DNA from: a virus
Length of the DNA: 64,000 nucleotides
IMG/VR virus record: IMGVR_UViG_3300003702_000496
Coordinates: 19,253 to 83,252 of that record
Reading direction: 5' to 3' (one strand)
In this document: positions 18,942-61,387 of the stretch, piece by piece
How positions within the stretch are numbered: the stretch's first letter is position 1
Layout of the letters: every line of letters begins with the position of its first letter
Program-made: the position numbers and the translations under genes
The notes under the pieces: generated by a model
Seen by the model: the letters and a program-made list of their open reading frames with translations, nothing else
Told to the model about the DNA's origin: nothing
Databases searched by the model: none

Positions 18942-19655
18942 TTAGACGATCCACTCGGCCATATTTTTAAATTCTTCGCTTATACCCGAAGCATTTCTCT
19001 TTTCCATTCCCAAGATCAACTGCCACGGATTCATTCCAAGATTCCCTGCAAGAATAATTCTCTCATGGTCACATTGTTGTTCTGATACTTGATGTCTTAT
19101 CCAGCCAGGAAACAATACCATGTTTCCTTTTATCGGAGCAATCTGATATGATGCATCCTCAAAGATTAACGGCGCACAGTTTTCACAACATTCTACATTA
19201 TATACCCAACTCCATATTTGAGGCCAATGCTCATGTAACTTGGTATAATTTCCTTTGGTATATATCGCGCCCCAACAATCATATGGCATTAACGGAACTC
19301 CCTGTCTTGGAGAATTGTCATACGCCAATTCTATTGCCATACGACACACTTCCATAAAATCTGAATTAGTTTCATGCATATACCAGCCAGTCATACTTGC
19401 TTGCACATTAGTTGAAGATTTTTGAACATCACCAATATCCCTACATGTTTGTACAAGTCTTTTCTGAAGTTCTTCGTTTGAACAATCTTTTTGTACAACA
19501 GGATACTTTACACGAAAAGATTGAGAGTGTGGATTGGTTGTTAGTTGTCTAAGTTTCTTTTCCTCTAATATATTTTCTTTTTCTATATTAGATACAAGTG
19601 CTTTTAGATGGTTCCTACTCATGGTAATGATGGTTCCTCTGGATACCAATACCAT
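18942..19655 (-). CDS. 2OG-Fe(II) oxygenase-like protein
   Basis: HEHWP...LFPGWIRH.V...ERIILAGN; true start probably ATG near 19622. Confidence 0.8.
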   Translation of the reverse strand: MVLVSRGTIITMSRNHLKALVSNIEKENILEEKKLRQLTTNPHSQSFRVKYPVVQKDCSNEELQKRLVQTCRDIGDVQKSSTNVQASMTGWYMHETNSDFMEVCRMAIELAYDNSPRQGVPLMPYDCWGAIYTKGNYTKLHEHWPQIWSWVYNVECCENCAPLIFEDASYQIAPIKGNMVLFPGWIRHQVSEQQCDHERIILAGNLGMNPWQLILGMEKRNASGISEEFKNMAEWIV

Positions 19656-20182
19656 CCTGTAATAATATATTTTGGATGAGTGTGTATAGGATTACCTCTA
19701 TGTTGATACATCCATGCAGCAGGAAATATACAACCCATTCCTTCCTTTGGTTGTATGCGTATCTTCTCATATAGAAATTCTGTTTCACCTTCACCTTTCG
19801 GAATATCATTCAGATAGATAGTCCATACCAGAGCTCTGGCACAGTTTTCCCAATGAGTTATTTCCGCATGGAAATTGTGAAACCCCCCACCCATAGGATT
19901 TGTACGTTGTATCTTAATTTCGGGTGTAAGTAAAATTTTTGCTCCTCTATATGCACAAGGAAACTCTTCCAAGTATTCCCGTAACATGTCCATAGTAGCT
20001 TTGTGTACTGGTTCATATAATTCAGAATTTTCTGGAAGCCATATCTGCTTATCCTTACGACTGACACGATTGGGTTCTTCAATTCTTACATTCTTTGGAG
20101 AACTTTCAAACCAGTCTATAAGAGAGTCACATAGGTCAAAAGAAAGTGCATTATCAAATCCTCTTACAAAATCACGAATCAT
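19619..20182 (-). CDS. 2OG-Fe(II) oxygenase
   Basis: FHNFHAE...YLND...GETEFLY...FPA.W.Y.HRGNP...KYIITGW. Confidence 0.9.
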   Translation of the reverse strand: MIRDFVRGFDNALSFDLCDSLIDWFESSPKNVRIEEPNRVSRKDKQIWLPENSELYEPVHKATMDMLREYLEEFPCAYRGAKILLTPEIKIQRTNPMGGGFHNFHAEITHWENCARALVWTIYLNDIPKGEGETEFLYEKIRIQPKEGMGCIFPAAWMYQHRGNPIHTHPKYIITGWYWYPEEPSLP

Positions 20183-20789
20183 TATTCATATCAATATTTA
20201 AATTGCCCGCAACCATAATACGATCATGATCACAATCATGCGTAGGAACTTCATGCATAATCCATGCAGGGAAAACAATTAACTGAAAAGGTTTAGGCAT
20301 CACTTTGAGTTTCTTCTCGCTTGTAGGAAATATTAATGGAGAACAGAACTCACATGCGTATACACAATAGGTATACGACCAGAGAGATGGCCAATGATTA
20401 TGTACTTTTGCTTCTTGCCATTTCTGGTATATAAGACCCCAACTCTCTTTGATATATAATGGGACTTCTTTTTTTTCGCCGGTCGTATCGGTACGCGTAG
20501 CTACAGGACAAGCTTGTGCAATCTTAATTGCTTCATTTCCAACCACTTCAAAAGATTTATATAACTCATGCATATCCCATCGAGTCATAAGACACTTAGC
20601 CGCAGTACGAGTTTGTAAATGATCGCCTGCATCTCTTATGTCTCTTTCCAAATATTTGTTAAGAGACTTCAACAACGGCCGTTCTTTTTCGTTTATCGTT
20701 TTTATTTTTACTGGATACTTATCCGTAAAATTTGGCCAGGGCCCTCGTTCATTATTTTTTCCATATACTAAATCACTTAATGCACTCAT
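20172..20789 (-). CDS. 2OG-Fe(II) oxygenase-like protein
   Basis: HNHWPSLWS...FPAWIMHEV...RIMVAGN; paralog of 18942-19655. Confidence 0.8.
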   Translation of the reverse strand: MSALSDLVYGKNNERGPWPNFTDKYPVKIKTINEKERPLLKSLNKYLERDIRDAGDHLQTRTAAKCLMTRWDMHELYKSFEVVGNEAIKIAQACPVATRTDTTGEKKEVPLYIKESWGLIYQKWQEAKVHNHWPSLWSYTYCVYACEFCSPLIFPTSEKKLKVMPKPFQLIVFPAWIMHEVPTHDCDHDRIMVAGNLNIDMNNDS

Positions 20790-21487
20790 ATAACAATCTC
20801 TTGTATGTTGGTTTCATCTGGGTGATGACCATCAAATTTAGGTTCCTTTCCTTTAGGAAGAAAATAAAACCAGCCTGTTGCAATATATTTAAGGCCTTCG
20901 TTTGGTGTAACTCCTTTATGTGGATGTGTCCAACCTGCTGGCCAGATCACCGTTCTACCAGTTTTAGCCCTTACTAGTTTTTCTTGATAAGGAAACCATG
21001 TGCCACACCTCGCGTTATTCAAATAGATCATCCATGCAAGCATACGATAGGGATACGAACCAGAGTGCTCGTTATGCAATGCAAAGAATCCTTCCTTCTC
21101 GCCATCGTATCGTTGCACATTATAGAAAGGACATAATCTCCACTGACTTGCTTTGTTAATCGTATTCAGATAACCATATTTTTTTGTATAAGATTCCAGT
21201 GCAGAATGTATAAAGTAATAAATTGGATCGTTAATGGAATTGTCTGCGCCGAAGTCAAAAGTTTTAGTCGCACAAACCTTTTGACGATTCTTATTAAAAT
21301 ACGCAAGCCCAGAATCCTTGGAAGCATTATCGTCATAAACAGACTCAAAAAATTGAATTATTCTTTCGCAGTTCTTTCTGCCTGCCTCAACCCAATCTTT
21401 ACGAATTAATATCGGTTGAGAAGAACTTTCTTCAACAACACTTCGCGCAGAGTCAAGATCATATGTTTCAATAAAATCAAAAAACAT
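20786..21487 (-). CDS. 2OG-Fe(II) oxygenase
   Basis: HNE...WMIYLN...WPAGWTHPHKG...KYIATGW. Confidence 0.88.
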   Translation of the reverse strand: MFFDFIETYDLDSARSVVEESSSQPILIRKDWVEAGRKNCERIIQFFESVYDDNASKDSGLAYFNKNRQKVCATKTFDFGADNSINDPIYYFIHSALESYTKKYGYLNTINKASQWRLCPFYNVQRYDGEKEGFFALHNEHSGSYPYRMLAWMIYLNNARCGTWFPYQEKLVRAKTGRTVIWPAGWTHPHKGVTPNEGLKYIATGWFYFLPKGKEPKFDGHHPDETNIQEIVI

Positions 21488-23326: not shown

Positions 23327-24091
23327 TTAATTTCCATCAAAAAGAACTTGCATTTTATTAATATTTTGTTCAAATATTTTTGTATTTATATTCATACTAA
23401 ATGATCTTCGTTCACCAATACCCTTAAAAGGATATGCTGTATGTCTTAGATTAGCAGGGAACAAATACCAATTACCAACCTTTGGAACAAATCCTATTCC
23501 ATCATTTTCAAAGAACGCTTTCTCATTAGGACCGCTATTATTCAGAATTTCCAAAACTCCGTTTAAGTCAATATGTTTTTTGTAGTTAGATTTAATGCTT
23601 TTTTTATGTTCCTTTGATAAATCGGGAACTTTCAAAAATCCTACACAAGTTAATTCAGAATCTGGGTGGGTGTGGATGGGATTATAATCTCCAGCAAAAG
23701 ATTGTACATACCAAGCAGATATAACATCAACTTGGATTTCATTAATATTTTTCAATGCTTGTTCTTTAGGAATAATGATAAAATTTTGTTCTGGAATATA
23801 AAGTTCATTATAATATCCAGCTATATATCTTTGTACTTGTTTACCAAACCATTGACCCCATTTATTAATAACATCAATCGGAATTTTAAGTTCCTGTTTA
23901 ACTTGACCAACGAGGGTATGTGAAAAATCTTCTGATTTTAATAGTTCTTCATCTTTAATAATATCATCACAACCTTTATTAAGATCAATTACTAATTCTT
24001 TTGGTAATTCAGCATAACCGATTGGCGGACCAAATGGAAAGTATGTTTGTAAAGGATTTCCGAAATCGTGTGGGGGTAAAGGAGTTTTCAT
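23327..24091 (-). CDS. 2OG-Fe(II) oxygenase-like protein
   Basis: AW.V....DYNPIHTH...FPANLRHTAYPF...ERRSFSMN. Confidence 0.85.
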   Translation of the reverse strand: MKTPLPPHDFGNPLQTYFPFGPPIGYAELPKELVIDLNKGCDDIIKDEELLKSEDFSHTLVGQVKQELKIPIDVINKWGQWFGKQVQRYIAGYYNELYIPEQNFIIIPKEQALKNINEIQVDVISAWYVQSFAGDYNPIHTHPDSELTCVGFLKVPDLSKEHKKSIKSNYKKHIDLNGVLEILNNSGPNEKAFFENDGIGFVPKVGNWYLFPANLRHTAYPFKGIGERRSFSMNINTKIFEQNINKMQVLFDGN

Positions 24092-26513: not shown

Positions 26514-27035
26514 CTAGTCCCACAGCGGTTTATCCACTGCACGTTTAAGATAGTCCACACCAGATGTTCCCCCAGTACCAGGCCTATTACCTATGATACG
26601 TTCAACGGCTTTCATATGAGAGAATTGCCACTTCTTAAATGCATTTTCTACATCAAGCAATTCTTGTTTTTCAATGCATCTCTCTGACCATTTCCAACCC
26701 AATTTTCTTCGTAAATCCTTTAGTAACCGTTCCATTTCCATATACTGTTCTGATTGTTTTCCTGATGCAGTTCCCAGTGTATCCCTAAAATTCTCATAAT
26801 CTTCATAGGACATCGTAGTGACAATATCCCATAATGAATTTAAGTGATTGAATATTCTTATAATGCGTTTTAAATTAACAGCATAACCATAATTGTTTAG
26901 TTCACCTATTAGTACCTTGAACCACAACTCAGAGGATTGGTGTGCGACTATGAACATGAGCTCTGTAGGCTCATCAGTATGCGGTTTCTGCAACGATAAT
27001 AATGTGTTCAAATTTAGATATTCATCGTATTTCAT
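26514..27035 (-). CDS. kynA: Tryptophan 2,3-dioxygenase, shortened
   Basis: Y..YL.L..LLSLQ, FIVAHQSSELWFK, Y..FRD.LG.ASG.QS.QY, HM..VERIIG..PGTGGTSGV.YL. Confidence 0.85.
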   Translation of the reverse strand: MKYDEYLNLNTLLSLQKPHTDEPTELMFIVAHQSSELWFKVLIGELNNYGYAVNLKRIIRIFNHLNSLWDIVTTMSYEDYENFRDTLGTASGKQSEQYMEMERLLKDLRRKLGWKWSERCIEKQELLDVENAFKKWQFSHMKAVERIIGNRPGTGGTSGVDYLKRAVDKPLWD

Positions 27036-27159: not shown

Positions 27160-27381
27160 TTATTCTTTAAGTATATACTTCATACCGCAATAGCCGCAAA
27201 CCGCGAAACCACTCTCTTCTATGGTGTAGTATACAACGGGATGATCATTGTCACACTTAATTTTTCTGTTATGTACTGTGGTGCTGTCAGAACTGAATAC
27301 ATATTTTTCATCTACTCTTACAATGCGTTCCTCTTCGGGAATAACATAGCTATTCTCTGCGTTTGCCTTTCTCAATGGCAT
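27160..27381 (-). CDS. zf-CHCC zinc-finger protein
   Basis: CD..HPVVY......AVCGYCG. Confidence 0.8.
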   Translation of the reverse strand: MPLRKANAENSYVIPEEERIVRVDEKYVFSSDSTTVHNRKIKCDNDHPVVYYTIEESGFAVCGYCGMKYILKE

Positions 27382-27794
27382 GATTTTCCGAACTTTCTTA
27401 AACGAATATAGTTATAGGGAAGCGGAGCGATATAACCAGCTATCAGCATCAGGGGGATTACAAACCAATTCAGTTCAGCACCGCCTGTCACAACGAAGTC
27501 TATTGCGTTCATCACTGCTTCCATAGTTATCATAGAGATAAGGGACATACCAGCTGCGGTTTTGAGCGCGAGTTTAAACGGTAATTGTTTGCTGAGAATT
27601 ATGGTTTCTAACAGAATTGAGGTGAGTATGCCATTTACGATGGCTAACGTCAAAATTGACCACACTGGCCAAGGAATTTCGGTTAACTGAAAGAACAGTA
27701 TAGTACCAAAATCACCTATTGAGCACCCTATCAGACACCATAGCGTGTTGATTAGAGTGCGTTTATATAGATCAATTAGAATGTTATTTTTCAT
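27372..27794 (-). CDS. DUF4396-like membrane protein
   Basis: TLWCLIGCSIGD, SMITME..MN, PLPYNY, ends K.CH. Confidence 0.75.
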   Translation of the reverse strand: MKNNILIDLYKRTLINTLWCLIGCSIGDFGTILFFQLTEIPWPVWSILTLAIVNGILTSILLETIILSKQLPFKLALKTAAGMSLISMITMEAVMNAIDFVVTGGAELNWFVIPLMLIAGYIAPLPYNYIRLRKFGKSCH

Positions 27795-27909
27795 TTAAAT
27801 TTCTTATACATCATTAAATAGTACATGAATGATCGCGGATAATGGTATGGGTTGGGTATGTCAACCGCAAAATATTCTTCGAGTTTCTCAACTATCTCAG
27901 ACATATCGG

Positions 27910-28638
27910 TTACTTTTTGTACAATATGCTGTTCATGCTGCATGTTGCATTTCTTCCAAAGTAGTCACAATAATATGTATCTACGAATAAAGTATTCGGT
28001 ATTTTCAATTTGGTTTGTGCTCTTCCTCTTGTATCTTCTATAATCATATAATCTTTCTCGTTCATATGCAAATCAAAATACGCTATTACTGCATTTACGT
28101 TCACATGAGCATCCTCTATTATAAGCCACGGATGAGGTGGGAAGTTTCGGTGGCCGACGAAGAAATAGTTCTCGATATCAAACGCCAAGGGCGTTGAGAA
28201 TGCATTCTCTAGTGTCTCTATTTTCTCACTGTCTCCTTTTACGAAAGTCACTCCCTCATAACTAGTAGTTGGTGGATTTATGTCTACGCTAATTATCTTT
28301 GTATTCACAAGTCCATACATCTTACATAAATCTGCCATCCATATTGCACTTCCGCCTTCGCTTCCGCTTCCTATTTCCAGTATCGTAGCGGGTTTTATAT
28401 CCCATATCATCATACTGTACAATGTGAAGTCAAATACGGTCTTGTAGAGGGGTATTCCTTTCCATGTCATGCAATTCTTTACACCCTGGCTCATAAGTAA
28501 TGTATCTATATGTACATGGCTAGTCTCAGGACGTTCCGAAAAAGAAACAAACTTCTCTTGTTTTCTTATTTCCGAAATGTCTTTTTGTTTATCTTTAGAA
28601 AGTATATTAATATTTCTTTTTAAATAGGTGTCTGTCAT
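27910..28638 (-). CDS. CmcI-family SAM-dependent methyltransferase
   Basis: WKGIPLYK...D...Y..MIWDIKP.TILEIGS...GGSAIW; IIEDAH; IIEDT. Confidence 0.8.
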   Translation of the reverse strand: MTDTYLKRNINILSKDKQKDISEIRKQEKFVSFSERPETSHVHIDTLLMSQGVKNCMTWKGIPLYKTVFDFTLYSMMIWDIKPATILEIGSGSEGGSAIWMADLCKMYGLVNTKIISVDINPPTTSYEGVTFVKGDSEKIETLENAFSTPLAFDIENYFFVGHRNFPPHPWLIIEDAHVNVNAVIAYFDLHMNEKDYMIIEDTRGRAQTKLKIPNTLFVDTYYCDYFGRNATCSMNSILYKK

Positions 28639-33650: not shown

Positions 33651-33947
33651 TTATAATGTACACAAATCATGATAACCTAGTTCGCGAAGAGTGTTATTCC
33701 ACTCTTCCTCTTTTCTCATAAAGGAAAGTTTTTCGTTTCGGTTTCTGCTATACTCACGAAGTTTCTCTTTGTTATTCTCGCGATATTTCTTTGCAGCTGC
33801 AAGAACTTTCTCTTTGTTATTCTCACGCCATTTCTTTGCAGATTCAAGAACTTTCTCTGGATACCTCTCACGGTATCTAATATTAGAAGCGCGCTTTTTC
33901 TCTGCTTTAGTCATAACAACTTCTTCATTTCTCATTACCATGTCCAA
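33651..33947 (-). CDS. Basic repeat protein (KKYRENNKEK repeats)
   Basis: 14-aa basic helical repeats; no nuclease motif. Confidence 0.55.
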   Translation of the reverse strand: MDMVMRNEEVVMTKAEKKRASNIRYRERYPEKVLESAKKWRENNKEKVLAAAKKYRENNKEKLREYSRNRNEKLSFMRKEEEWNNTLRELGYHDLCTL

Positions 33948-34684
33948 TCCCGATTACGCCGGCCGGAGCGCCAAGGCTTCTTCTTTAAAGCGTTAATGTT
34001 ACGAGTTAGTTTGTTCTTCTTATCAATGGTATTAGTGGAGGCCTGCAAACTCTCAGCGAAGTGGATAATGGCCATCTTGACTTCCCTATGCCGTTTGTGG
34101 TAGTTCTTTCCACCGACAATACGAAACTCAATCCATCCAGTACCCTTTTTGATATTCAATTTTGACATGTTGATCGAATCGTACTTGTACTTATTATTCA
34201 TCTTGTTCTTGAGTTTGGTAAACACCCTATCCTGAGAATCATTTTTTCTCAGGGTCAGGCCCTTCTTCATAGGTTCAACAAACTCGTTTTGAGTGCGCTT
34301 GAATGCCCTTAACCACTTCTGTTCATCCACAAGTAGAACTAGTTTTGCCTCATCAATCTTCTTGGTTTCACTTTTTCGGGAGAATCCCAGATTGATATGA
34401 AGACCACATGACGCATTTGTTTGAGCGTTCATGAGTTCCATCAAAGTGAACAATTTGTCTATCGCCTTCAAGCCCTTTTTCAAAGACCAAACAGGCGTGA
34501 CAATCTCCACATCTGAATTGTCCCTATTGGTTGTAACAGAAGGATCATCTGTTACAATGAATTTGTCCCGAGTCCTGAAACTGTTGCGGTCAACAATTTC
34601 GGGGAAGATCGCCTTCACTGCACCTCTGATTGTAGAACTAGGGGCATCTACACCCATCTCTAGTTCATAACCAACTTCGATCAT
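33935..34684 (-). CDS. Putative amidoligase (COOH-NH2 ligase, glutamine-synthetase-like fold)
   Basis: GYELE, DPS, EIVTP, N.SCGLHIN, KY.SIN, IEFR..GG. Confidence 0.8.
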   Translation of the reverse strand: MIEVGYELEMGVDAPSSTIRGAVKAIFPEIVDRNSFRTRDKFIVTDDPSVTTNRDNSDVEIVTPVWSLKKGLKAIDKLFTLMELMNAQTNASCGLHINLGFSRKSETKKIDEAKLVLLVDEQKWLRAFKRTQNEFVEPMKKGLTLRKNDSQDRVFTKLKNKMNNKYKYDSINMSKLNIKKGTGWIEFRIVGGKNYHKRHREVKMAIIHFAESLQASTNTIDKKNKLTRNINALKKKPWRSGRRNRDWTW

Positions 34685-34713
34685 TACAAAACCTTTTCTC
34701 TCACTTATACCCT

Positions 34714-34742
34714 ATGCTACCATATGGGATAGGGTTTGTCAA
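34714..34742 (-). promoter_or_regulatory. sigma70-like early promoter
   Basis: TTGACA-17-TAGCAT. Confidence 0.75.
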
Positions 34743-34966
34743 CTAAAATCGCCCGGGGCCCAGAACGCTCGTTCTGGAGTCCAAGAAAAATTTCTATCAT
34801 CGAGCCATCGCCATTCACCCGTTTTCAACGACTGAATAGGAGGCAGACGGCGAGGGTGTGACATTTTTATCACACCTGGCGGCAAGTCTAAGACTTCCCA
34901 CTGGTCGCCGTGTTCATGGACACGGTTTTTCCCGTGTCTGGTGATACCTTTAAGGGTAATAATCAT
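34739..34966 (-). CDS. Hypothetical early protein
   Basis: L.G.TRHGKNRV.EHG..W motif; near-leaderless start after promoter. Confidence 0.6.
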   Translation of the reverse strand: MIITLKGITRHGKNRVHEHGDQWEVLDLPPGVIKMSHPRRLPPIQSLKTGEWRWLDDRNFSWTPERAFWAPGDFS

Positions 34967-34974
34967 TATGTCTT

Positions 34975-35003
34975 ATTCTAACACATGGGACAGGGTTTGT
35001 CAA
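34975..35003 (-). promoter_or_regulatory. sigma70-like early promoter
   Basis: TTGACA-17-TAGAAT; spacer similar to that of the 34714-34742 promoter. Confidence 0.8.
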
Positions 35004-35017
35004 ATCAGCCCCCCTGT

Positions 35018-35175
35018 TAAGTCATTGAAATTAAAGACAGAATCGAGGTTTTTTTTCTACTTTTTTTGTGGTTAAGCCATTGATAATAAACAAAACTTTT
35101 TTTATGTCTAAGTCATTGATTCTAAACGATTTTGAAAAAAAAGTTCAAAAATCTTTTAAGTCATTGATATATAAA
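35018..35175 (-). repeat. Four direct repeats matching the IHF consensus WATCAANNNNTTR
   Basis: TAAG(T/C)CATTGA at 35018, 35073, 35109, 35157, separated by A/T tracts. Confidence 0.7.
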
Positions 35176-36045
35176 GATATTGTCTGTGAGGAAGTCATAG
35201 ACCTCAGAAAATGGGCCTGCGGAAATCATAATTATCGCATCTCTATCAAGGGCATTCAATTCTTCTAAAGTCTCAGCACAACAGATGTCCACATAGCATT
35301 CATCCGATTGTATGTGAGAAGTGATATATCTTTTGATATAGTCTATTGATTCAATCTTAGACCAAGTAGATACTTCCTGTAAGGTTTGATATATGGAGAC
35401 AGCCCTCTGACGGTCAGACTGCGTTAATAGTTTATTACGAGAACTACAAGCAAGACCATCAGAATCCCTTATGATAGGAGCTATGACTACCTTTATGGGA
35501 AGACCTAACTGTTTGATAAGAGATTTTAACCCAAAATTTTGATATGCGTCCTTTTGCCCGACCACAGTTATATCTGGCATTATAACATTAAATACTGGAA
35601 AATATGTTGAAAGAACATACGTCAATCTGGGAGAGATAGTCGCATCAAATGTATCACGATTTCTCCAGAAAGCATATGCTTTCTCACACATTTCTATGGG
35701 AATACTCAAATCATCTATATATAATTGATCCCCTACTCCACCAATATAAAAAAATACATCTACCCCATTTGATTTTGCTAATTCAATATCTCTTGAAAGT
35801 CCATTTGACATCTTTCTATATTGCAATAAACTTTTCGTATATTCTTCAGCGGATTGTTCTTTATAATCTACACTGTGACCAGCACTTAGTACCACTACAT
35901 CAGCATTTTCTTTGGCAATCTTTACCAAGGACATATGACCATCATGTAATTCTGCATCTGTATCTATAGATGCTATAGTTTTACCTTCACGTTTTAATCG
36001 TTGACAATAATCTTTTGTCACTTGAATTGATTCTATAAATTTCAT
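35161..36045 (-). CDS. panC: Divergent pantoate-beta-alanine ligase-like protein (paralog 3)
   Basis: LHDGH, GQKDAYQ, RDSDGLACSSRN, DN C-terminus; NPxQF and RPGHF absent. Confidence 0.8.
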   Translation of the reverse strand: MKFIESIQVTKDYCQRLKREGKTIASIDTDAELHDGHMSLVKIAKENADVVVLSAGHSVDYKEQSAEEYTKSLLQYRKMSNGLSRDIELAKSNGVDVFFYIGGVGDQLYIDDLSIPIEMCEKAYAFWRNRDTFDATISPRLTYVLSTYFPVFNVIMPDITVVGQKDAYQNFGLKSLIKQLGLPIKVVIAPIIRDSDGLACSSRNKLLTQSDRQRAVSIYQTLQEVSTWSKIESIDYIKRYITSHIQSDECYVDICCAETLEELNALDRDAIIMISAGPFSEVYDFLTDNIFIYQ

Positions 36046-36048
36046 TTC

Positions 36049-36915
36049 TTAATTACTTTGATATTTTAGTATTGGTAATTTCTCAATAGTTACATAACCA
36101 GGCGGCGCCTGTAGAATATGAGGTATTCTGTTTATCGTTTGAGCTGATGTTACCACAGGCGATCCTAATCCATCCACTTTTACGTTAAGGTTTGGTTCGC
36201 CCCTTATTTCCCACGCTTTAAACTCTTCCCCCACAATTAACTTATATTGACCAACCATTCTTATACCTTCTTTAGTCGTAATATCCAACTTTGTACCACT
36301 CGCATCTATAGTTTCTTCTACATCTATAATATTCAGATTTAAAGCTGAAGCTACATTATCCCAAAATGTTACATATATACTTGGACTTTTTGATAATGTA
36401 GCAAATGTTTCGGGCCCGAAATTAGTTGTATCAAAACAACTACGATAGATAATTTCATCTATTCGATGGCAAGCACCTGACATTAATACTCCTAGATGCA
36501 CAATACCAAAATCTTGAGCACCAGTTCCAGTGATTGTGACACCATATTCTTTTGCTATATTATCTAATTCAACAGTTAGTTCGGGGTATAGTCTCCATGA
36601 AAATGAAGAACTTTCTCCTATAGTAGCTACATTCTTTCTTGCTTCTAAACACTGTTTGTAAATTGGAAACATTATAGGCAATTCACTTGCTACTGCAACA
36701 ATAACGATATCTGCTGTCTTTGATAACACCTTTTCTGGGTCATCAGATATAGGTACATTCAAATAATCAATGCCGGACAATAAACCCAAATCTTTACCAA
36801 TTTTAGGGCCGGGTCTATTGATTGCTCCTACAATATCAATACCCCTTTCTTTTAATAATCTTGTAGCCAACATATTCATTTGGCCCACACCATATATTAT
36901 AACTTTTGTTGTCAT
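36049..36915 (-). CDS. DapB-like Rossmann oxidoreductase (2,4-diaminopentanoate / amine dehydrogenase-like)
   Basis: VIIYGVGQM, GKDLG.L.G, LD..AK..GVT.TGTG, I.GEP, T.A.TINRIP....APPGY.T. Confidence 0.75.
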   Translation of the reverse strand: MTTKVIIYGVGQMNMLATRLLKERGIDIVGAINRPGPKIGKDLGLLSGIDYLNVPISDDPEKVLSKTADIVIVAVASELPIMFPIYKQCLEARKNVATIGESSSFSWRLYPELTVELDNIAKEYGVTITGTGAQDFGIVHLGVLMSGACHRIDEIIYRSCFDTTNFGPETFATLSKSPSIYVTFWDNVASALNLNIIDVEETIDASGTKLDITTKEGIRMVGQYKLIVGEEFKAWEIRGEPNLNVKVDGLGSPVVTSAQTINRIPHILQAPPGYVTIEKLPILKYQSN

Positions 36916-36918
36916 ATC

Positions 36919-37782
36919 TTACCTCGGTTCTATTATAATGTTATCATAAAGTTCATCCACATCACCAAACCTTACATTAACAACAATCACAAATTTTCTA
37001 TCAATTGAATTCAATTCTTCTAGGGTTTCTGCACAACAGATATCTATGCAATTTACTGTTCCATTATTTCTAGTTATACATTCATTAATGTACATTTTGA
37101 TACGTTGTATTGAAGGATATGCAGGCCAAGCAGATACTTCCTGTAATGTTTCGTTAAGGGAAATAAGATTGTTATAATCATCTTTCGTTAAATCTCTATT
37201 ATGAGAACTAAAAGCCACACCATTAGAATCTCTAACGATAGGAGCTATAATTACCTTTATGGGAAGACTTGATTGTTTGATAAGATATTTAAGGACAACA
37301 ATTTGATGTACATCCTTTTGACCTAATATAGATACATCAGGCAGTATAATATTATACAATTCTTTAGCACCCAACATAAATTTCATATTTACAGGGGGAA
37401 AATAAGGTCTATCTATTATCAACTGATCAATTACAGGAATAGAAACATTTAAAGGAGGAATATCTAAATATAAATCATTCATCGGAGGAAGAAAAAGTAC
37501 ATCTACATTATTTAACTTACATATTTCAATTTCTTTTTCTTTAAAATCTTGTTCATATACTTTTAATTGTGCTTCATATTTTTCAATGGAAGAGTCAAAA
37601 TAATCAACTGTGTGACAAATGCTCAATACTACTGCGTCAACATTTTCTTTAGCAACCTTTACCAAGGACATATGGCCATCATGTAAATCTCCTTCAGTAT
37701 CTATTAATCCAATAGTCTTTCCTATTTGTTTTACTTGTCGAGAATATTCTCGCATTTCTTTAATTGACTCAATAATTTTCAT
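36919..37782 (-). CDS. panC: Divergent pantoate-beta-alanine ligase-like protein (paralog 2)
   Basis: LHDGH, GQKDVHQ, RDSNGVAFSSHN, ELYDN. Confidence 0.8.
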   Translation of the reverse strand: MKIIESIKEMREYSRQVKQIGKTIGLIDTEGDLHDGHMSLVKVAKENVDAVVLSICHTVDYFDSSIEKYEAQLKVYEQDFKEKEIEICKLNNVDVLFLPPMNDLYLDIPPLNVSIPVIDQLIIDRPYFPPVNMKFMLGAKELYNIILPDVSILGQKDVHQIVVLKYLIKQSSLPIKVIIAPIVRDSNGVAFSSHNRDLTKDDYNNLISLNETLQEVSAWPAYPSIQRIKMYINECITRNNGTVNCIDICCAETLEELNSIDRKFVIVVNVRFGDVDELYDNIIIEPR

Positions 37783-38693
37783 CTAGCATAACCAAGATGC
37801 TTTGGTTCTATTATAATGTTATCATAAAGTTCAATCACGTTACCAAATTGTGTAGAAACTAAAATTACTGCTTTTCTATCAATTGTCTTTAATTCTTCTA
37901 AGGTTTCTGCACAACAGATATCTATGTAATTTACTGTTCCGTCAGAAGCTTCTATGCGTTCATTAATATACATCTTAACACGTTGTATTGAGGGATATTC
38001 AGACCAAGTAGATACTTCCTGTAATGTTTTATAGACAGAAGAAACATTTATAAGTTCTTCTTTATTTAAAGCTGCGTTACGAGAACTTAAAGCTACACCA
38101 TTAGAATCTCTAATGGTAGGAGCAATAATTAATTTAATTGAATAATTCAAATCATCTATAAGAGATTTAAGATAAGAAGTTAATTCATAAACATCTTTTT
38201 CTCCAATTACACTCACATCGGGCGACACAATATTAAATATTTTTAAATTCATGAGCAGGTATAGAGATATAATATCTCCATATCCATTAGCTAAATTTGG
38301 ATTCCAAGCCCTCTTTTTGATAAATCTGTCAACAAGAAGACCAGATAAAGTTATTTTATTTGTCAAATTTGAATATACATCTAACATACTAGGTTGAAAC
38401 AATATATCTACATCATATTTTTCACATGTAGCAAGATCATCTTTTAAAAACTCTGCATGATATTCTGCTATATGTTTTTCGTATCTCTCAGGATGATTTA
38501 AATAATAAAAATAATAAAAAGTATGAAAATTACTCATCACTACTACGTCAACATTTTCTTTGGCAACCTTTACCAAAGACATATGACCATCATGTAAATA
38601 AGATTCTGTAGCAACAGATGCTATAGTTTTACCGTCACGTTTAAGTTGTTGAGAATACTCTCGCATCTCGTCAATTGATTCAATAATTTTCAT
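37779..38693 (-). CDS. panC: Divergent pantoate-beta-alanine ligase-like protein (paralog 1)
   Basis: LHDGH, GEKDVYE, RDSNGVALSSRN, ELYDN. Confidence 0.8.
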   Translation of the reverse strand: MKIIESIDEMREYSQQLKRDGKTIASVATESYLHDGHMSLVKVAKENVDVVVMSNFHTFYYFYYLNHPERYEKHIAEYHAEFLKDDLATCEKYDVDILFQPSMLDVYSNLTNKITLSGLLVDRFIKKRAWNPNLANGYGDIISLYLLMNLKIFNIVSPDVSVIGEKDVYELTSYLKSLIDDLNYSIKLIIAPTIRDSNGVALSSRNAALNKEELINVSSVYKTLQEVSTWSEYPSIQRVKMYINERIEASDGTVNYIDICCAETLEELKTIDRKAVILVSTQFGNVIELYDNIIIEPKHLGYAR

Positions 38694-38866
38694 TTTTTTA
38701 ATTCCACTTCTGCTTTATGTCCACAATGAGGACAAGTCATTTCTGGCCATTTTTTCCAAACAGCATCTGTAGTTGCCCAACTAGTTGCATAACTCCACCA
38801 ATTCATGCACTTAACACAATTGAAATGAAGTATCAACTCTTTTGTATATGTGTGATTTATACCCAC
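38690..38866 (-). CDS. Small Zn-ribbon protein (58 aa, not in track)
   Basis: GTG start; HFNCVKCMNWWS...TCPHCG; its TGA overlaps the ATG of the first panC-like gene. Confidence 0.65.
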   Translation of the reverse strand: MGINHTYTKELILHFNCVKCMNWWSYATSWATTDAVWKKWPEMTCPHCGHKAEVELKK

Positions 38867-38874
38867 TTTGAAAC

Positions 38875-38903
38875 ATTATATAACAATTCTTGATGAATGT
38901 CAA
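38875..38903 (-). promoter_or_regulatory. Consensus sigma70 promoter of the panC-like operon
   Basis: TTGACA-17-TATAAT. Confidence 0.85.
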
Positions 38904-38913
38904 GAACCTTTTG

Positions 38914-39576
38914 TTAACGTCTTTTCTTAGATAACTCCATTGCAATCCAATCCTTGGCTCGCGTATTCTGAACTTTTCTTTTAGCGAGTTTTTGTACACG
39001 TTTGAAAACTTGGGTAAAGATATCCTCTCCAGCATCATTGTTATCTATGATAATCATACCAGCGCCAAAGAAGTTATTAAATTTACCAAGATTTGCTTGT
39101 ACATCTTTCCACGATTTAATTACTTTAGATTCTGGAACACTACGAGGACGTTCTGCATTTCGTTGAAGGGCAACATCAAGAGAGGTGTTCACAAATATCA
39201 TATATGTGTCATATCCCAACTCTTGCAGTTGTCTTGCTTGCATTTGTATCTTATCAAAGTCTCTGCCTGTGCCATCTATGATAAGACCAAGACGCCCCTC
39301 AAGAAAATTTTCTTTTCTTTTTGCAGTAATTTCTTTTGCTCGCGCACGAACAATATCTCTAGGAGCTTCTTGTTCTGAGGGCATCTTGAGAGACAGACCA
39401 GCCTTTTTCAGAAGAGTTTCAAAAGCATCATCTGAATTAACTGATTTAAGTCCCATACCACCAGTGGTGCGTCTGGCAACGTATGATTTACCGCTGCCAG
39501 GCCCACCAGCTAAAAAGAACGCCTTAAATATATTAGGGTCGTAAACCCCCTCTTGCAACTCTCTGAATGTCTTCAT
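38914..39576 (-). CDS. P-loop kinase (AAA_33 / zeta-toxin-like)
   Basis: FLAGGPGSGKS, VNSD..FE, IIDGTG, ALQRNAER.R. Confidence 0.8.
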   Translation of the reverse strand: MKTFRELQEGVYDPNIFKAFFLAGGPGSGKSYVARRTTGGMGLKSVNSDDAFETLLKKAGLSLKMPSEQEAPRDIVRARAKEITAKRKENFLEGRLGLIIDGTGRDFDKIQMQARQLQELGYDTYMIFVNTSLDVALQRNAERPRSVPESKVIKSWKDVQANLGKFNNFFGAGMIIIDNNDAGEDIFTQVFKRVQKLAKRKVQNTRAKDWIAMELSKKRR

Positions 39577-39853
39577 TAGATATTCGTTCCTTCATCAACT
39601 CTCTTTTATATCCTGCTGTCTCTATAATGTATTTATCATTTTCTGATAGCGGTTCATATTTGCGATTCTGTTTTTGAAAAGTCATCTTCTTAATTCGGTT
39701 TTTGGTCCTAGCCATCCTAGCCATTTTTCTTTTCCTTTTCATTTGTGATTTATTGGATATATTATAAGAGGTGATATTATGATTCTCCTTTCGATTATGT
39801 ATTATAATATTTGTAAGATTCCGCGACAGCAACTGAGTCAGCTGAAGGTTCAA
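39533..39853 (-). CDS. Small basic hypothetical protein
   Basis: Likely start downstream (MKRKRK or MARMAR). Confidence 0.4.
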   Translation of the reverse strand: MNLQLTQLLSRNLTNIIIHNRKENHNITSYNISNKSQMKRKRKMARMARTKNRIKKMTFQKQNRKYEPLSENDKYIIETAGYKRELMKERISNEDIQRVARGGLRP

Positions 39854-41228
39854 AATTATCTGTTGGTGCTTCTAATCTTTCCTCTAAAGAATCTTTTACT
39901 AGATTCATATGCATTGTATGTTTTGCTGGTGATGAACTCGTATCAAAATCGTGTCTAAGTCTTTTGATTATAAATGGACCCTTATAAAATTTGTCAAATC
40001 TATCATTATCTACCCCTATAACAGCAGCTTTATATGGTAAATTAATTGTTACTTTATCTCCAGCATTTATTAATGTATTTCCATGAACTGATATGTTTAT
40101 GTTAAGTGCATTTTCCAATTGTATCATTTGTGAGGTTCTTCTTTGAATCCATTTATGAGGATCGTATGCCATATAAGGAGATGTGTTGTTGGATGTTACA
40201 TGTTGAGAATCAACACTTCCAGTAAGAGAAGTTGGCATCAGAAATGTTCTTGCAGGGAAATCAGATATCCTTGATCCATCTTCTTGTATATGTAATTCGC
40301 TTGCAAGGGGAAACTCTAATTTCCCTTCTGTAACACCACCAACAATATGTGATTCATTATTAAAATTATCATGATAATTATATATTTCAGTTCGATAACT
40401 TTTGTTAAGAATATCGTGAGTTATAAGTTTTGATGCATACATGCCTGTACGATAATTTATAAGACTGTCATTATTAGAAACTATTTGATAATCAAGAATA
40501 GTTCCTAAATCTCTTAATACATCAACCATACCATCTTTTGTTAAATTGGTGCCAGCAACTGATGTAGTATATTCTATAAGAGATGATTCATTATATAAAC
40601 TTGCTAAAGTTCTAAAATTAAATCCTTTAAGATTTTCGTAAAATAAATATGTCGGTTCTCCTTTATAGATAGCCACAGCCTGTTTCATTCCTAAAACAAT
40701 TATGTCTAATGGCCTCATATTTGGAGCAACAAATTTCTTTACGCCGGAACTTTCTTCTATAACTCTATTCTTTTTAGTACCCAAATAATCTACCAACATT
40801 CTATCAACAATATTTGACCAAGAATCAGTTAAACTTTGTGTAACTTTGATTCTCTGATTTTTAACTAATTCTTGACTAACAAAACTTAATACAAATCCTT
40901 GAACACCAGCAGGCGAAATTTCTTGTCTTTTGGATATAGAATGTACGAGAAATACATTTTCAGAAAAATCTATGACTGCACTTTCATTGATGAAAGTTGG
41001 AGTTGCAATTTTAAGATGTAAATATTCTTGACCTAAAAGTGGACCATAAGATGCCAAATTCACAGAATCCATTATTGCAACAGTACCAGAGATTGTCATT
41101 GAAAATATGTTTTCAAAAATAGTTATTCCCATTACCATTGTTGAAAGATCAACTTCTAATCCTGTGGTGGTGATAAGTCTTAATTCTTCTATTATAAAAT
41201 CACCAGGCCCAGTTAAACCTTCAGCCAT
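39795..41228 (-). CDS. Probable baseplate hub / tail protein (gp27-like position)
   Basis: I.ENIF...ISG...I.DS..L....P..GQE; YLFYE...GFNF..L; G...I..LRH; next to gp53. Confidence 0.65.
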   Translation of the reverse strand: MAEGLTGPGDFIIEELRLITTTGLEVDLSTMVMGITIFENIFSMTISGTVAIMDSVNLASYGPLLGQEYLHLKIATPTFINESAVIDFSENVFLVHSISKRQEISPAGVQGFVLSFVSQELVKNQRIKVTQSLTDSWSNIVDRMLVDYLGTKKNRVIEESSGVKKFVAPNMRPLDIIVLGMKQAVAIYKGEPTYLFYENLKGFNFRTLASLYNESSLIEYTTSVAGTNLTKDGMVDVLRDLGTILDYQIVSNNDSLINYRTGMYASKLITHDILNKSYRTEIYNYHDNFNNESHIVGGVTEGKLEFPLASELHIQEDGSRISDFPARTFLMPTSLTGSVDSQHVTSNNTSPYMAYDPHKWIQRRTSQMIQLENALNINISVHGNTLINAGDKVTINLPYKAAVIGVDNDRFDKFYKGPFIIKRLRHDFDTSSSPAKHTMHMNLVKDSLEERLEAPTDNFEPSADSVAVAESYKYYNT

Positions 41229-53304: not shown

Positions 53305-53380
53305 TGGTGCCGAAGGGAAGATTCAAACTCCCGACCTGTTGATTACAAATCAACTGTTCTATCAACTGAACTACTTCGGC
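53305..53380 (-). tRNA. tRNA-Thr(UGU)
   Basis: 76-nt cloverleaf, GCCGAAG/CTTCGGC acceptor, GTTGA-TTTGTAA-TCAAC anticodon arm, encoded CCA. Confidence 0.93.
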
Positions 53381-60362: not shown

Positions 60363-60365
60363 TAA

Positions 60366-60655
60366 GTGGTAGGTATTCTGTTGCCAGGAACCTACCGAAC
60401 CCCGACAGACTATGCAGCTAGTGCATAATCCTCAAATGCCTCATTATCGTTGGCACTTATTATTTTGACCGATAAGGTGGTCAATCCACAGTTCTCCACG
60501 TTCCTATACATTGTCAGTCGATCCTAGTTCGCCCCCATCAAGAGTACACCTTGAAATATTACTTTCGTCAGTTACTCACCCGATGTACTCATGGTGGAGG
60601 CGACGGGTACTGCCCCCGTGTCCTGTACAATTTTCAGTTCGTATCATCAAACTGT
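60366..60655 (-). ncRNA. ssrA: Permuted two-piece tmRNA; tag (A)ANDNEAFEDYALAA
   Basis: Acceptor piece GGACACGGGGGCAGTACCCGTCGCCTCCACCA (60623-60592) precedes coding piece GGGGGCGAACTAGGATCGAC (from 60536); G3-U70; tag at 60454-60410; CCTGGCAACAGAA hairpin. Confidence 0.93.
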
Positions 60656-60660
60656 AACTA

Positions 60661-60691
60661 TATTTATACCATATTAAACCAGTTTTGTCAA
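60661..60691 (-). promoter_or_regulatory. Overlapping sigma70 and T4-late promoter for tmRNA
   Basis: TTGACA-17-TATAAA whose -10 is a full TATAAATA. Confidence 0.75.
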
Positions 60692-61387
60692 GTGTTTATT
60701 TTGTTCTTTCCATTCTGTAACGGAATCTTTTAATGCTTCCAAATAATCAAATTTTTTCTTCACAAACTCTTGTACTGTACCATCTTCTGTCACTACCAGA
60801 ATTACTATTTGTGAAACATCAATTCCAGTTAACTCAGTAAACATCTCTGCATATGCAGAACCTTGAATATAATAATTTTCGTTCCAAGCATCATCCCGTT
60901 CTCTGGTTGATGTCTTAAAATCTATAACAGACAATACATTATCATATTCTGCGATACAATCAGCTCTGCCTGCTACCTTATATTTGTCACTATATAATCC
61001 ACACTCTTGGGCATAGATATTATCAATGTTACATAATACTTTATTTTTTAATTGAGTGAATAAGCACCAAGGCAGAAAATCTTTTTCATGTTTTTTCCAT
61101 TTATCAGGATAATCTAGAGATACATTATTTAAATAATCCTCACACATATGATGAACTTTGGTGCCTCTAGCTGCAGCTTTACCAGCAACATAATTGGCAA
61201 CATCATTTCCCACACGTTTACGCCATTCCACCAATCCTTTCTTATTACGAATTGATAAAACGGTTGTAATAGAAGGATATTCATTTCCTTCTGGTGTCAC
61301 ATAAAAACGATTTTTATTGATTGTTTTAGTTTTTAGTTTCGGTATTAGTGACGGAACTGTTTTCTGGTGTTTGTATGTCATCTTCAC
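60674..61387 (-). CDS. PD-(D/E)XK exonuclease
   Basis: YPSITTVL, WR.RVG, RGT.VH..CE.YL, AGR.DCIAEY...IDFKTS, Y..Q..AYA.M. Confidence 0.88.
   Translation of the reverse strand: MKMTYKHQKTVPSLIPKLKTKTINKNRFYVTPEGNEYPSITTVLSIRNKKGLVEWRKRVGNDVANYVAGKAAARGTKVHHMCEDYLNNVSLDYPDKWKKHEKDFLPWCLFTQLKNKVLCNIDNIYAQECGLYSDKYKVAGRADCIAEYDNVLSVIDFKTSTRERDDAWNENYYIQGSAYAEMFTELTGIDVSQIVILVVTEDGTVQEFVKKKFDYLEALKDSVTEWKEQNKHLTKLV

Follow-up and report, generated by a model that had tools for sequence, protein, structure and literature searches.

What would a phage use three adjacent PanC-like ligases for, and what is a dehydrogenase doing between them? The question is raised by an operon of a deep-sea phage, found in a window of 64,000 nucleotides (the whole stretch of DNA analysed, positions 19,253 to 83,252 of IMG/VR virus record IMGVR_UViG_3300003702_000496), which is part of an 83-kb record estimated to be about 46% complete. 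The operon comprises five minus-strand open reading frames (ORFs), encoding a small Zn-ribbon-type protein, the PanC-like ligases A and B, a short-form amine dehydrogenase-like enzyme and the PanC-like ligase C. A first-pass annotation, made from the sequence alone, had read it as a candidate biosynthetic or modification system built from re-purposed PanC enzymes, and the coordinates it gave agree with the ORF list. The evidence collected here supports the view that the three ligases are PanC-fold enzymes, catalytically intact by their residues and with remodelled substrate sites. They belong to a large, widespread and hitherto undescribed phage-centred radiation, of which this operon is one instance.

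Substrate Sites of the PanC-Like Ligases

The three ligases match PF02569 with E-values of 4e-46, 9e-44 and 5e-38 for A, B and C (profile positions 1-268, 1-267 and 2-256 of 268), and there is a weak match to TIGR00125, the HIGH nucleotidyltransferase superfamily. Their closest solved relatives are the PanC enzymes of T. maritima (2EJC, E 4e-34) and E. coli (1IHO, E 1e-30), and the predicted structure of PanC-like A from the Atlas superposes on bacterial PanC with TM values of 0.84-0.90. B and C are 54% and 44% identical to A. Against TIGR00018, the equivalog profile of PanC, the scores are 159.7, 140.5 and 122 bits for A, B and C, all below the cut-off of 212.75.

The motifs LHDGH, G[QE]KD and R..DG.A.SS[RH]N are found in all three ligases, and the canonical PTMG, FVNPxQF and RPGHF segments are absent from all three, both as first described. 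For a comparison by residue, 153 phage-type sequences were aligned with four canonical PanCs from bacterial genomes. The key residues of the Mycobacterium tuberculosis enzyme are His44, His47, Asn69, Gln72, Lys160 and Gln164 (PMC5772511). Seven residues (H34, H37, G164, K166, D167, R195 and S204) are invariant in all 153 phage-type sequences, with R205 (144/153) and N206 (126/153) nearly so, and the conserved HxGH and GxKD residues map to His44, His47 and Lys160. Purifying selection has thus acted strongly on the adenylation machinery.

The substrate side of the pocket has a different history. The Asn69 equivalent is Ser, Thr, Ile, Pro or Val across the aligned sequences, Asn never being among the commonest residues, and the Gln72 equivalent is Tyr in 131 sequences and Phe in 13. 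A, B and C themselves have T, T and S at the former position and Tyr at the latter. Gln164 is mostly kept (129/153), including in B and C, and is Glu in A. Across the family the Pro of PTMG is replaced by D, S or N and its Met by D, E or T. As far as the alignment tells, the contacts to pantoate and beta-alanine are gone from the phage-type family. Measured against PanC as defined by TIGR00018, the ligases have the fold and the ATP residues and lack the substrate residues, the equivalog score and the pathway context.

Canonical PanC (EC 6.3.2.1; 2EJC, 1IHO, 1MOP) thus shares with the phage-type ligases a two-domain fold over the full length, HxGH, the Lys of GxKD and the SSRN-type motifs, and acyl-adenylate chemistry is presumed to be common to both. 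The phage-type enzymes differ from it in the replaced Asn69 and Gln72 equivalents and PTMG and RPGHF segments, in an almost invariant new His57 in place of Val (141/153), in the likewise new and invariant Tyr61, Trp230 and Cys261, and in an organization into tandem arrays of 2-7 genes and self-fusions.

The simplest alternative is that these are genuine pantothenate synthetases, a duplicated auxiliary metabolic gene that raises the supply of coenzyme A. Their best database matches are all PanC, relatives are annotated as pantoate--beta-alanine ligase, and a single canonical-looking panC is carried by some phages. This alternative is nevertheless very improbable, given the family-wide replacement of Asn69 and Gln72, the scores below the equivalog cut-off, the long branch from canonical PanC and the presence of three to seven divergent copies, which would be unexpected for one reaction. 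Neither panB, panD nor panE was found in the whole 83-kb record, itself about 46% complete. The initial judgement that ordinary pantothenate synthesis is unlikely is upheld by these data.

Types and Distribution of the Subfamily

A FastTree phylogeny places 151 phage-type sequences in one clade, and the branch between it and canonical PanC measures about 1.1 substitutions per site. The clade contains at least six well-supported types, and the ligases A, B and C fall into three different ones (T3, T4 and T5), that of C being the largest. Two further loci (L019 and L020; loci are designated by L numbers) branch outside the clade and represent another phage PanC type, divergent and present in single copy. 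Within a type, the central region shows 48-91% identity; between types, identity is 15% there and 48-63% in the N-terminal and catalytic core regions. A central region conserved by type is the pattern expected of paralogs with different but fixed specificities and, judged from these comparisons, is unlike that of decaying copies or hypervariable binding surfaces.

A profile built from 13 paralogs gave more than 4,500 matches, of which the best 120 all had E-values below 1e-112 and came mostly from metagenomes, Tara among them. The INPHARED phages yielded no match to the DNA, no match to the dehydrogenase and no member of the PanC-like subfamily; the PanC matches there are only canonical-type genes, about 25-35% identical. 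None of the five operon proteins has a family in PHROGs, and full-text literature searches for PanC-like proteins, panC auxiliary genes and native amine dehydrogenases in viruses returned no description of the system.

Sequencing runs with near-identical operon DNA belong to 14 metagenome studies of hydrothermal vents, cold seeps, marine sites and seawater; these may include the source sample, and at least half of the sampled words were found in only 5 runs. No RNA runs are listed among the matching runs. One very small run not labelled as a metagenome, with about 1 Mb of contigs in all, contains positions 35211-38531 at approximately 100% identity and lacks the flanks 34000-35200 and 38620-40000, and the operon cassette may have other surroundings in that source.

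Tandem Arrays of Ligase Genes

Viral and metagenome loci were scanned and scored with purpose-built hidden Markov models. The search for neighbourhoods with several panC-like genes, which the first-pass annotation had proposed, recovered many arrays, some of them with the DapB-like dehydrogenase. Phage-type genes almost always lie head-to-tail, in 2-7 copies on about 20 independent viral and metagenomic contigs. There are three copies in the window and in L007, seven in L008, at least six in L047, at least five in L048 and at least four in L046, and two to three in L010-L017, L045, L049-L051 and L055. The types follow a loose order, T1-[DH]-T4-T5(n)-T2-T6/T3, DH being the dehydrogenase; the order in the window is T3-T4-DH-T5. 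The largest array (L008:8293-15257, on a contig shared with L006) is an uninterrupted series of seven paralogs and a 272-aa short dehydrogenase, and three of its paralogs are recent T5 duplicates.

Array composition varies even between near-identical phages. The genes upstream of the L047 array are approximately 100% identical to those of L009 and L018, whose sequence stops inside the first PanC-like gene, and the first PanC-like gene of L047 is only 87.5% identical to its counterpart there. Unlike L008, L047 has no dehydrogenase after this gene. Contigs from two other marine samples show altered forms of the operon of the window, each with one PanC-like gene unit skipped. In some, position 37634 is joined to 38546, with 911 nt left out, which would make an A/B chimera; in others, 36948 is joined to 37835, with 886 nt left out, which would make an array without B. 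These junctions are only a hint because depth is low (3.6-4.9). The N- and C-terminal DNA of the three paralogs had been described as near-identical; the ends are indeed conserved, at the lower level of 70-84% identity. Together with the skipped units, they hint at unequal recombination between conserved gene ends.

Two natural fusions, of 594 aa (P0161) and 602 aa (P0162), combine a T3/T6-like copy with a T4 copy through the linker KPNHN[RK]TK, and the 602-aa form represents a cluster of 17 sequences. Canonical PanC is known in fusions with CMP-kinase, PanB or HPPK; the phage-type ligases are instead fused to their own paralogs. The fusions suggest that adjacent paralogs act together.

The many types could also reflect an arms race, in which the enzymes would carry out adenylylation only, without ligation, and would thereby inactivate or mimic a small molecule of the host, such as a toxin, a signal or a defence metabolite. 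The different arrays of L047 and L009/L018, the contigs from other samples in which one gene unit is missing or genes are chimeric, and the place of the PanC fold in the HIGH nucleotidyltransferase superfamily would fit this idea. It is rather unlikely, however: the central region is conserved within each type and not hypervariable, the C-terminal lid domain has been retained along with the Arg/Ser/Asn set of the two-step PanC reaction, and no known defence or anti-defence gene was noticed beside the arrays, for which no dedicated PADLOC search was made.

The Dehydrogenase

Both domains expected of the dehydrogenase are present (DapB_N, 33.7 bits with a cut-off of 25.6; DAP_DH_C, 25.5 bits with a cut-off of 23.3), and the score against NF040740, the Ord equivalog, is 118.5 bits with a cut-off of 400. 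The best solved match is the native amine dehydrogenase (AmDH) of M. smegmatis (6IAQ, E 3e-45); the match consists of two stretches, and about 45 residues that separate them in 6IAQ are absent. Relative to cellular homologues, the C-terminal domain has two internal deletions, and the enzyme has 288 aa, compared with about 335-350 aa for full-length forms. With native AmDHs and 2,4-diaminopentanoate dehydrogenases (6IAQ, 6IAU; PF01113 and PF19328) it shares an N-terminal Rossmann domain, GxQD, a C-terminal NRIP...PGY.T and an aligned Glu. It differs from native AmDH and Ord (MsmeAmDH, CfusAmDH) in being about 45-50 residues shorter and in forming a separate short-form clade, and from native AmDH in that the phage copies are embedded in PanC-like arrays. 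A catalytic glutamate at position P3 is critical in the native AmDH family (PMC11164908). In the alignment, residue E101 of the window enzyme (TIGES) corresponds to the Glu of TLSEE in 6IAQ and to that of TIGEE in 6IAU. This Glu is presumably P3, given an assumed tag offset of four residues.

Members of the short-form clade measure 272-304 aa and are 71-98% identical; the cellular long forms measure 334-354 aa and are about 45% identical. All five copies in a phage context (window, L007, L008, L048 and L052) lie inside or next to PanC-like arrays, tightly packed, at positions that vary between after T1, after T2 and after T4. About three quarters of the arrays have no dehydrogenase, and of 16 cellular homologues not one lies beside a PanC-like gene. 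An 85%-identical copy of 295 aa is found alone in a Dehalococcoidia metagenome-assembled genome (L021:8001-8888, contig DPHC01000001.1), between a RibD_C-like gene and glutamate synthase, with pyruvate kinase and a luciferase-like monooxygenase also nearby, in a genome with a single canonical PanC. In the tree it is nested in the phage-centred short-form clade, which may reflect a phage-to-cell transfer or secondary acquisition, or else a link to the host.

Association with PanC-like arrays therefore holds for every phage copy of the dehydrogenase found. The coupling first proposed is partly supported and would not be obligatory, because most arrays do without the enzyme and a close relative stands alone in a bacterium. 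The idea of three ligases around a dehydrogenase as a conserved unit has to give way to that of a variable tandem array in which the dehydrogenase is optional. An independent auxiliary gene, e.g., one that frees ammonia from amines as a source of nitrogen, which reached the array island by chance, is a serious contender though the less probable one. The lone Dehalococcoidia copy beside glutamate synthase, the absence of PanC-like genes around cellular homologues and the many arrays without dehydrogenase agree with it, and so do the surroundings of the cellular long forms, which adjoin sarcosine/dimethylglycine-dehydrogenase-like, FAD amine-oxidase-like and ornithine-cyclodeaminase genes in amine catabolic clusters and point to amine and amino-acid metabolism. 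Chance arrival accounts poorly, however, for the confinement of the phage copies to arrays, at varied positions and with tight packing, and the bacterial copy may be a secondary acquisition. On balance, the dehydrogenase is probably an optional tailoring module that is functionally coupled to the arrays.

Promoter and Genomic Neighbourhood

The operon is tightly packed, as had been claimed, with 4-nt overlaps between the Zn-ribbon ORF and A (where the stop of the former overlaps the start of the latter in ATGA) and between A and B, and with 3-nt gaps on both sides of the dehydrogenase gene. The perfect TTGACA-17-TATAAT promoter ahead of it was confirmed at all 12 positions. Three perfect sites of this kind occur in the window, as compared with 0.07 expected from shuffles. 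An independent perfect TTGACA-17-TATAAT stands just upstream of the arrays in L007, L008, L047 and L048 (group 1), so that two phage lineages, only distantly related, have arrays headed by a perfect sigma-70 promoter. No TATAAATA late promoter was found within 2.5 kb upstream of the array of the window or of the group-1 arrays.

The first gene of the operon is less certain than the others. An ORF with CxxC...CxxC is present, its Pfam and NCBIfam Zn-binding matches are below the cut-offs, and its listed GTG start follows the -10 box by only about 9 nt. This closeness favours an internal start, probably at a TTG or ATG, which would give about 48 aa. The group-1 arrays also have a CxxC...CxxC ORF upstream, which is not homologous to that of the window and is located before the array promoter. 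A role of the small pre-array ORFs as carrier protein or as precursor of a ribosomally synthesized and post-translationally modified peptide was considered and dropped, in view of this lack of homology between groups and of the group-1 position upstream of the promoter. No carrier protein or conserved protein partner of the arrays was found.

In the window, the operon forms the end of an accessory-enzyme island of about 20 kb, whose edge is at the tail module, so that tail and baseplate genes adjoin the operon. The arrays of other phages have diverse neighbours. In L013, L014, L016 and L017 they directly follow tail-fibre-like and collagen-like genes and the genes for a DUF6065-like protein (phrog_7084) and a 2-oxoglutarate (2OG)-Fe(II) oxygenase (PF13640); in L010-L012 they precede the gene of a 763-aa virion structural protein; and in group 1 they have spanin-like lysis genes on one side and DUF3310, ThyX and a radical-SAM gene on the other.

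Arrays that adjoin tail genes bring protein or other macromolecular acceptors into consideration. The ligases might modify a macromolecule (tail fibres or other virion proteins, a glycan or a nucleic acid) instead of a free metabolite, either by adenylating a protein carboxylate or by passing an activated acyl group to a protein amine, as lipoate and biotin protein ligases do. Both the tail and baseplate genes beside the operon and the tail-fibre-like, collagen-like and structural genes beside the arrays of L010-L014, L016 and L017 would fit such a target. Tail-fibre regions of T4-like marine phages are, however, general hot spots for accessory genes, and no conserved protein partner was found. 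A metabolic role is favoured by the early-type, host-type consensus promoters, with no late promoter nearby in the window and group 1, and by the position of the group-1 arrays away from structural genes, between lysis genes and ThyX. Modification of a macromolecule is thus considered unlikely, though somewhat less so than adenylylation alone.

Proposed Function

The explanation preferred here, held with moderate confidence, is that the arrays encode catalytically competent PanC-fold amide ligases that form acyl-adenylates from carboxylates other than pantoate, each type with its own specificity, and that tailoring enzymes supply their substrates. In a first step, ATP and a carboxylate would give an acyl-adenylate and pyrophosphate, as in PanC; in a second, an amine would attack the acyl-adenylate to give an amide and AMP. 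The substrates would be other than pantoate and beta-alanine, with one specificity per type. The dehydrogenase would interconvert a ketone or aldehyde and an amine for the ligases; in other phage groups 2OG-Fe(II) oxygenases take the neighbouring place. The whole would constitute a recombining, combinatorial array transcribed from a consensus host-type promoter. The sequence data establish how the operon is built, that the catalytic residues are conserved and the pantothenate-specific ones lost, that the family has types and variable arrays, and that the dehydrogenase is associated with them. Amide-ligase chemistry is inferred from the conserved catalytic residues, and so, at a further remove, are the nature of the substrates, the coupling of dehydrogenase and ligases and a small-molecule product. 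Acidic and polar residues have replaced the hydrophobic Pro and Met as well as Asn and Gln, so that polar or cationic acids (amino or hydroxy acids) or amine partners may be guessed as the substrates.

Several observations weigh against this explanation. The SSRN loop of A and C reads SSHN in B, and SSRL or SSRH occurs in some family members. The argument from pocket charge combines the alignment with assumed structural roles of Pro38 and Met40. In two phage groups the arrays have tail-fibre, collagen-like or virion-structural genes on one side and 2OG-Fe(II) oxygenases on the other. As regards the coupling, the majority of arrays without a dehydrogenase and the bacterial copy described above count on the same side.

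A bolder extension may be put forward only tentatively. The types, at least six in number and some fused in pairs, could form a toolkit of deep-sea phages that assembles new amide compounds or tags independently of ribosomes, nonribosomal peptide synthetases and ATP-grasp enzymes. AmDH-like enzymes and 2OG oxygenases would supply the building blocks, and recombination would shuffle the array and thereby change the product.

Phage enzymes of the Amidoligase_2 family (PF12224), which are glutamine-synthetase-like COOH-NH2 ligases, offer a comparison. They resemble the proposed system in ATP-dependent amide formation and in their occurrence in phage accessory islands. Their fold is unrelated to that of PanC and their mechanism proceeds through an acyl-phosphate. 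Like other stand-alone amide-bond synthetases, and unlike the PanC-like ligases, they do not form tandem arrays of several types.

Other Features of the Window

The features of the window are collected in Table 1. Downstream of the operon, separate units with further host-type promoters contain a 75-aa ORF and then an Amidoligase_2 gene, a second ATP-dependent amide-ligase family in the accessory island that is unrelated to the PanC-like ligases. A gene for a Zeta-toxin/AAA_33-type kinase lies directly upstream of the operon promoter, and no tie to the operon was seen. The 2OG-Fe(II) oxygenase-like genes of the window were ruled out as adjacent partners of the operon by their distance of 14-16 kb. 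The tail and baseplate proteins are distant kin (24-29% identity) of those of marine T4-like myophages of Methylophilales, Pelagibacter and cyanobacteria, and the match of the tmRNA to the alphaproteobacterial family model points to an alphaproteobacterial host.

Table 1. Position of the operon and of other annotated features in the window.
Feature	Position	Strand	Details
sigma-70-type consensus promoter	38903-38875	-	TTGACA-17-TATAAT; 12/12 match
Zn-ribbon ORF	38690-38866	-	CxxC...CxxC; 58 aa as listed
PanC-like A	37779-38693	-	304 aa; type T3; ATESYLHDGH / FHTFYY / GEKDVYE / SSRN
PanC-like B	36919-37782	-	287 aa; type T4; DTEGDLHDGH / CHTVDY / GQKDVHQ / SSHN
Short-form amine dehydrogenase-like NAD(P) enzyme	36049-36915	-	288 aa
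PanC-like C	35161-36045	-	294 aa; type T5; DTDAELHDGH / GHSVDY / GQKDAYQ / SSRN
Amidoligase_2 gene	33935-34684		PF12224; about 500 bp downstream of operon; own host-type promoters
Zeta-toxin/AAA_33-type P-loop kinase	38914-39576		phrog_12810, E 1e-44
Four consecutive 2OG-Fe(II) oxygenase-like genes	18942-21487		PF13759/PF13640
Fifth 2OG-Fe(II) oxygenase-like gene	23327-24091		PF13759/PF13640
Tryptophan 2,3-dioxygenase-like protein	26514-27035		173 aa; PF03301, E 5e-38 in two stretches; profile of 346 positions
DUF4396 membrane protein and CmcI/rhamnosyl O-methyltransferase-like gene	27372-28638		in accessory island
tRNA-Thr	53305-53380		
Permuted tmRNA	60365-60695		138 bits to Rfam alpha_tmRNA

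Significance

PanC has so far been treated as a family with a single function. The present finding points to a large and conserved phage-centred radiation of this fold with new substrate pockets, organized in arrays of up to seven genes, abundant in marine metagenomes and absent from the cultured phages of INPHARED and from the literature searched. If its members are amide ligases of distinct specificity, they would open to phages a new way of producing or altering metabolites in the course of an infection, and they would be a ready panel of small, single-domain, ATP-dependent catalysts of amide-bond formation, together with a naturally miniaturised amine dehydrogenase.

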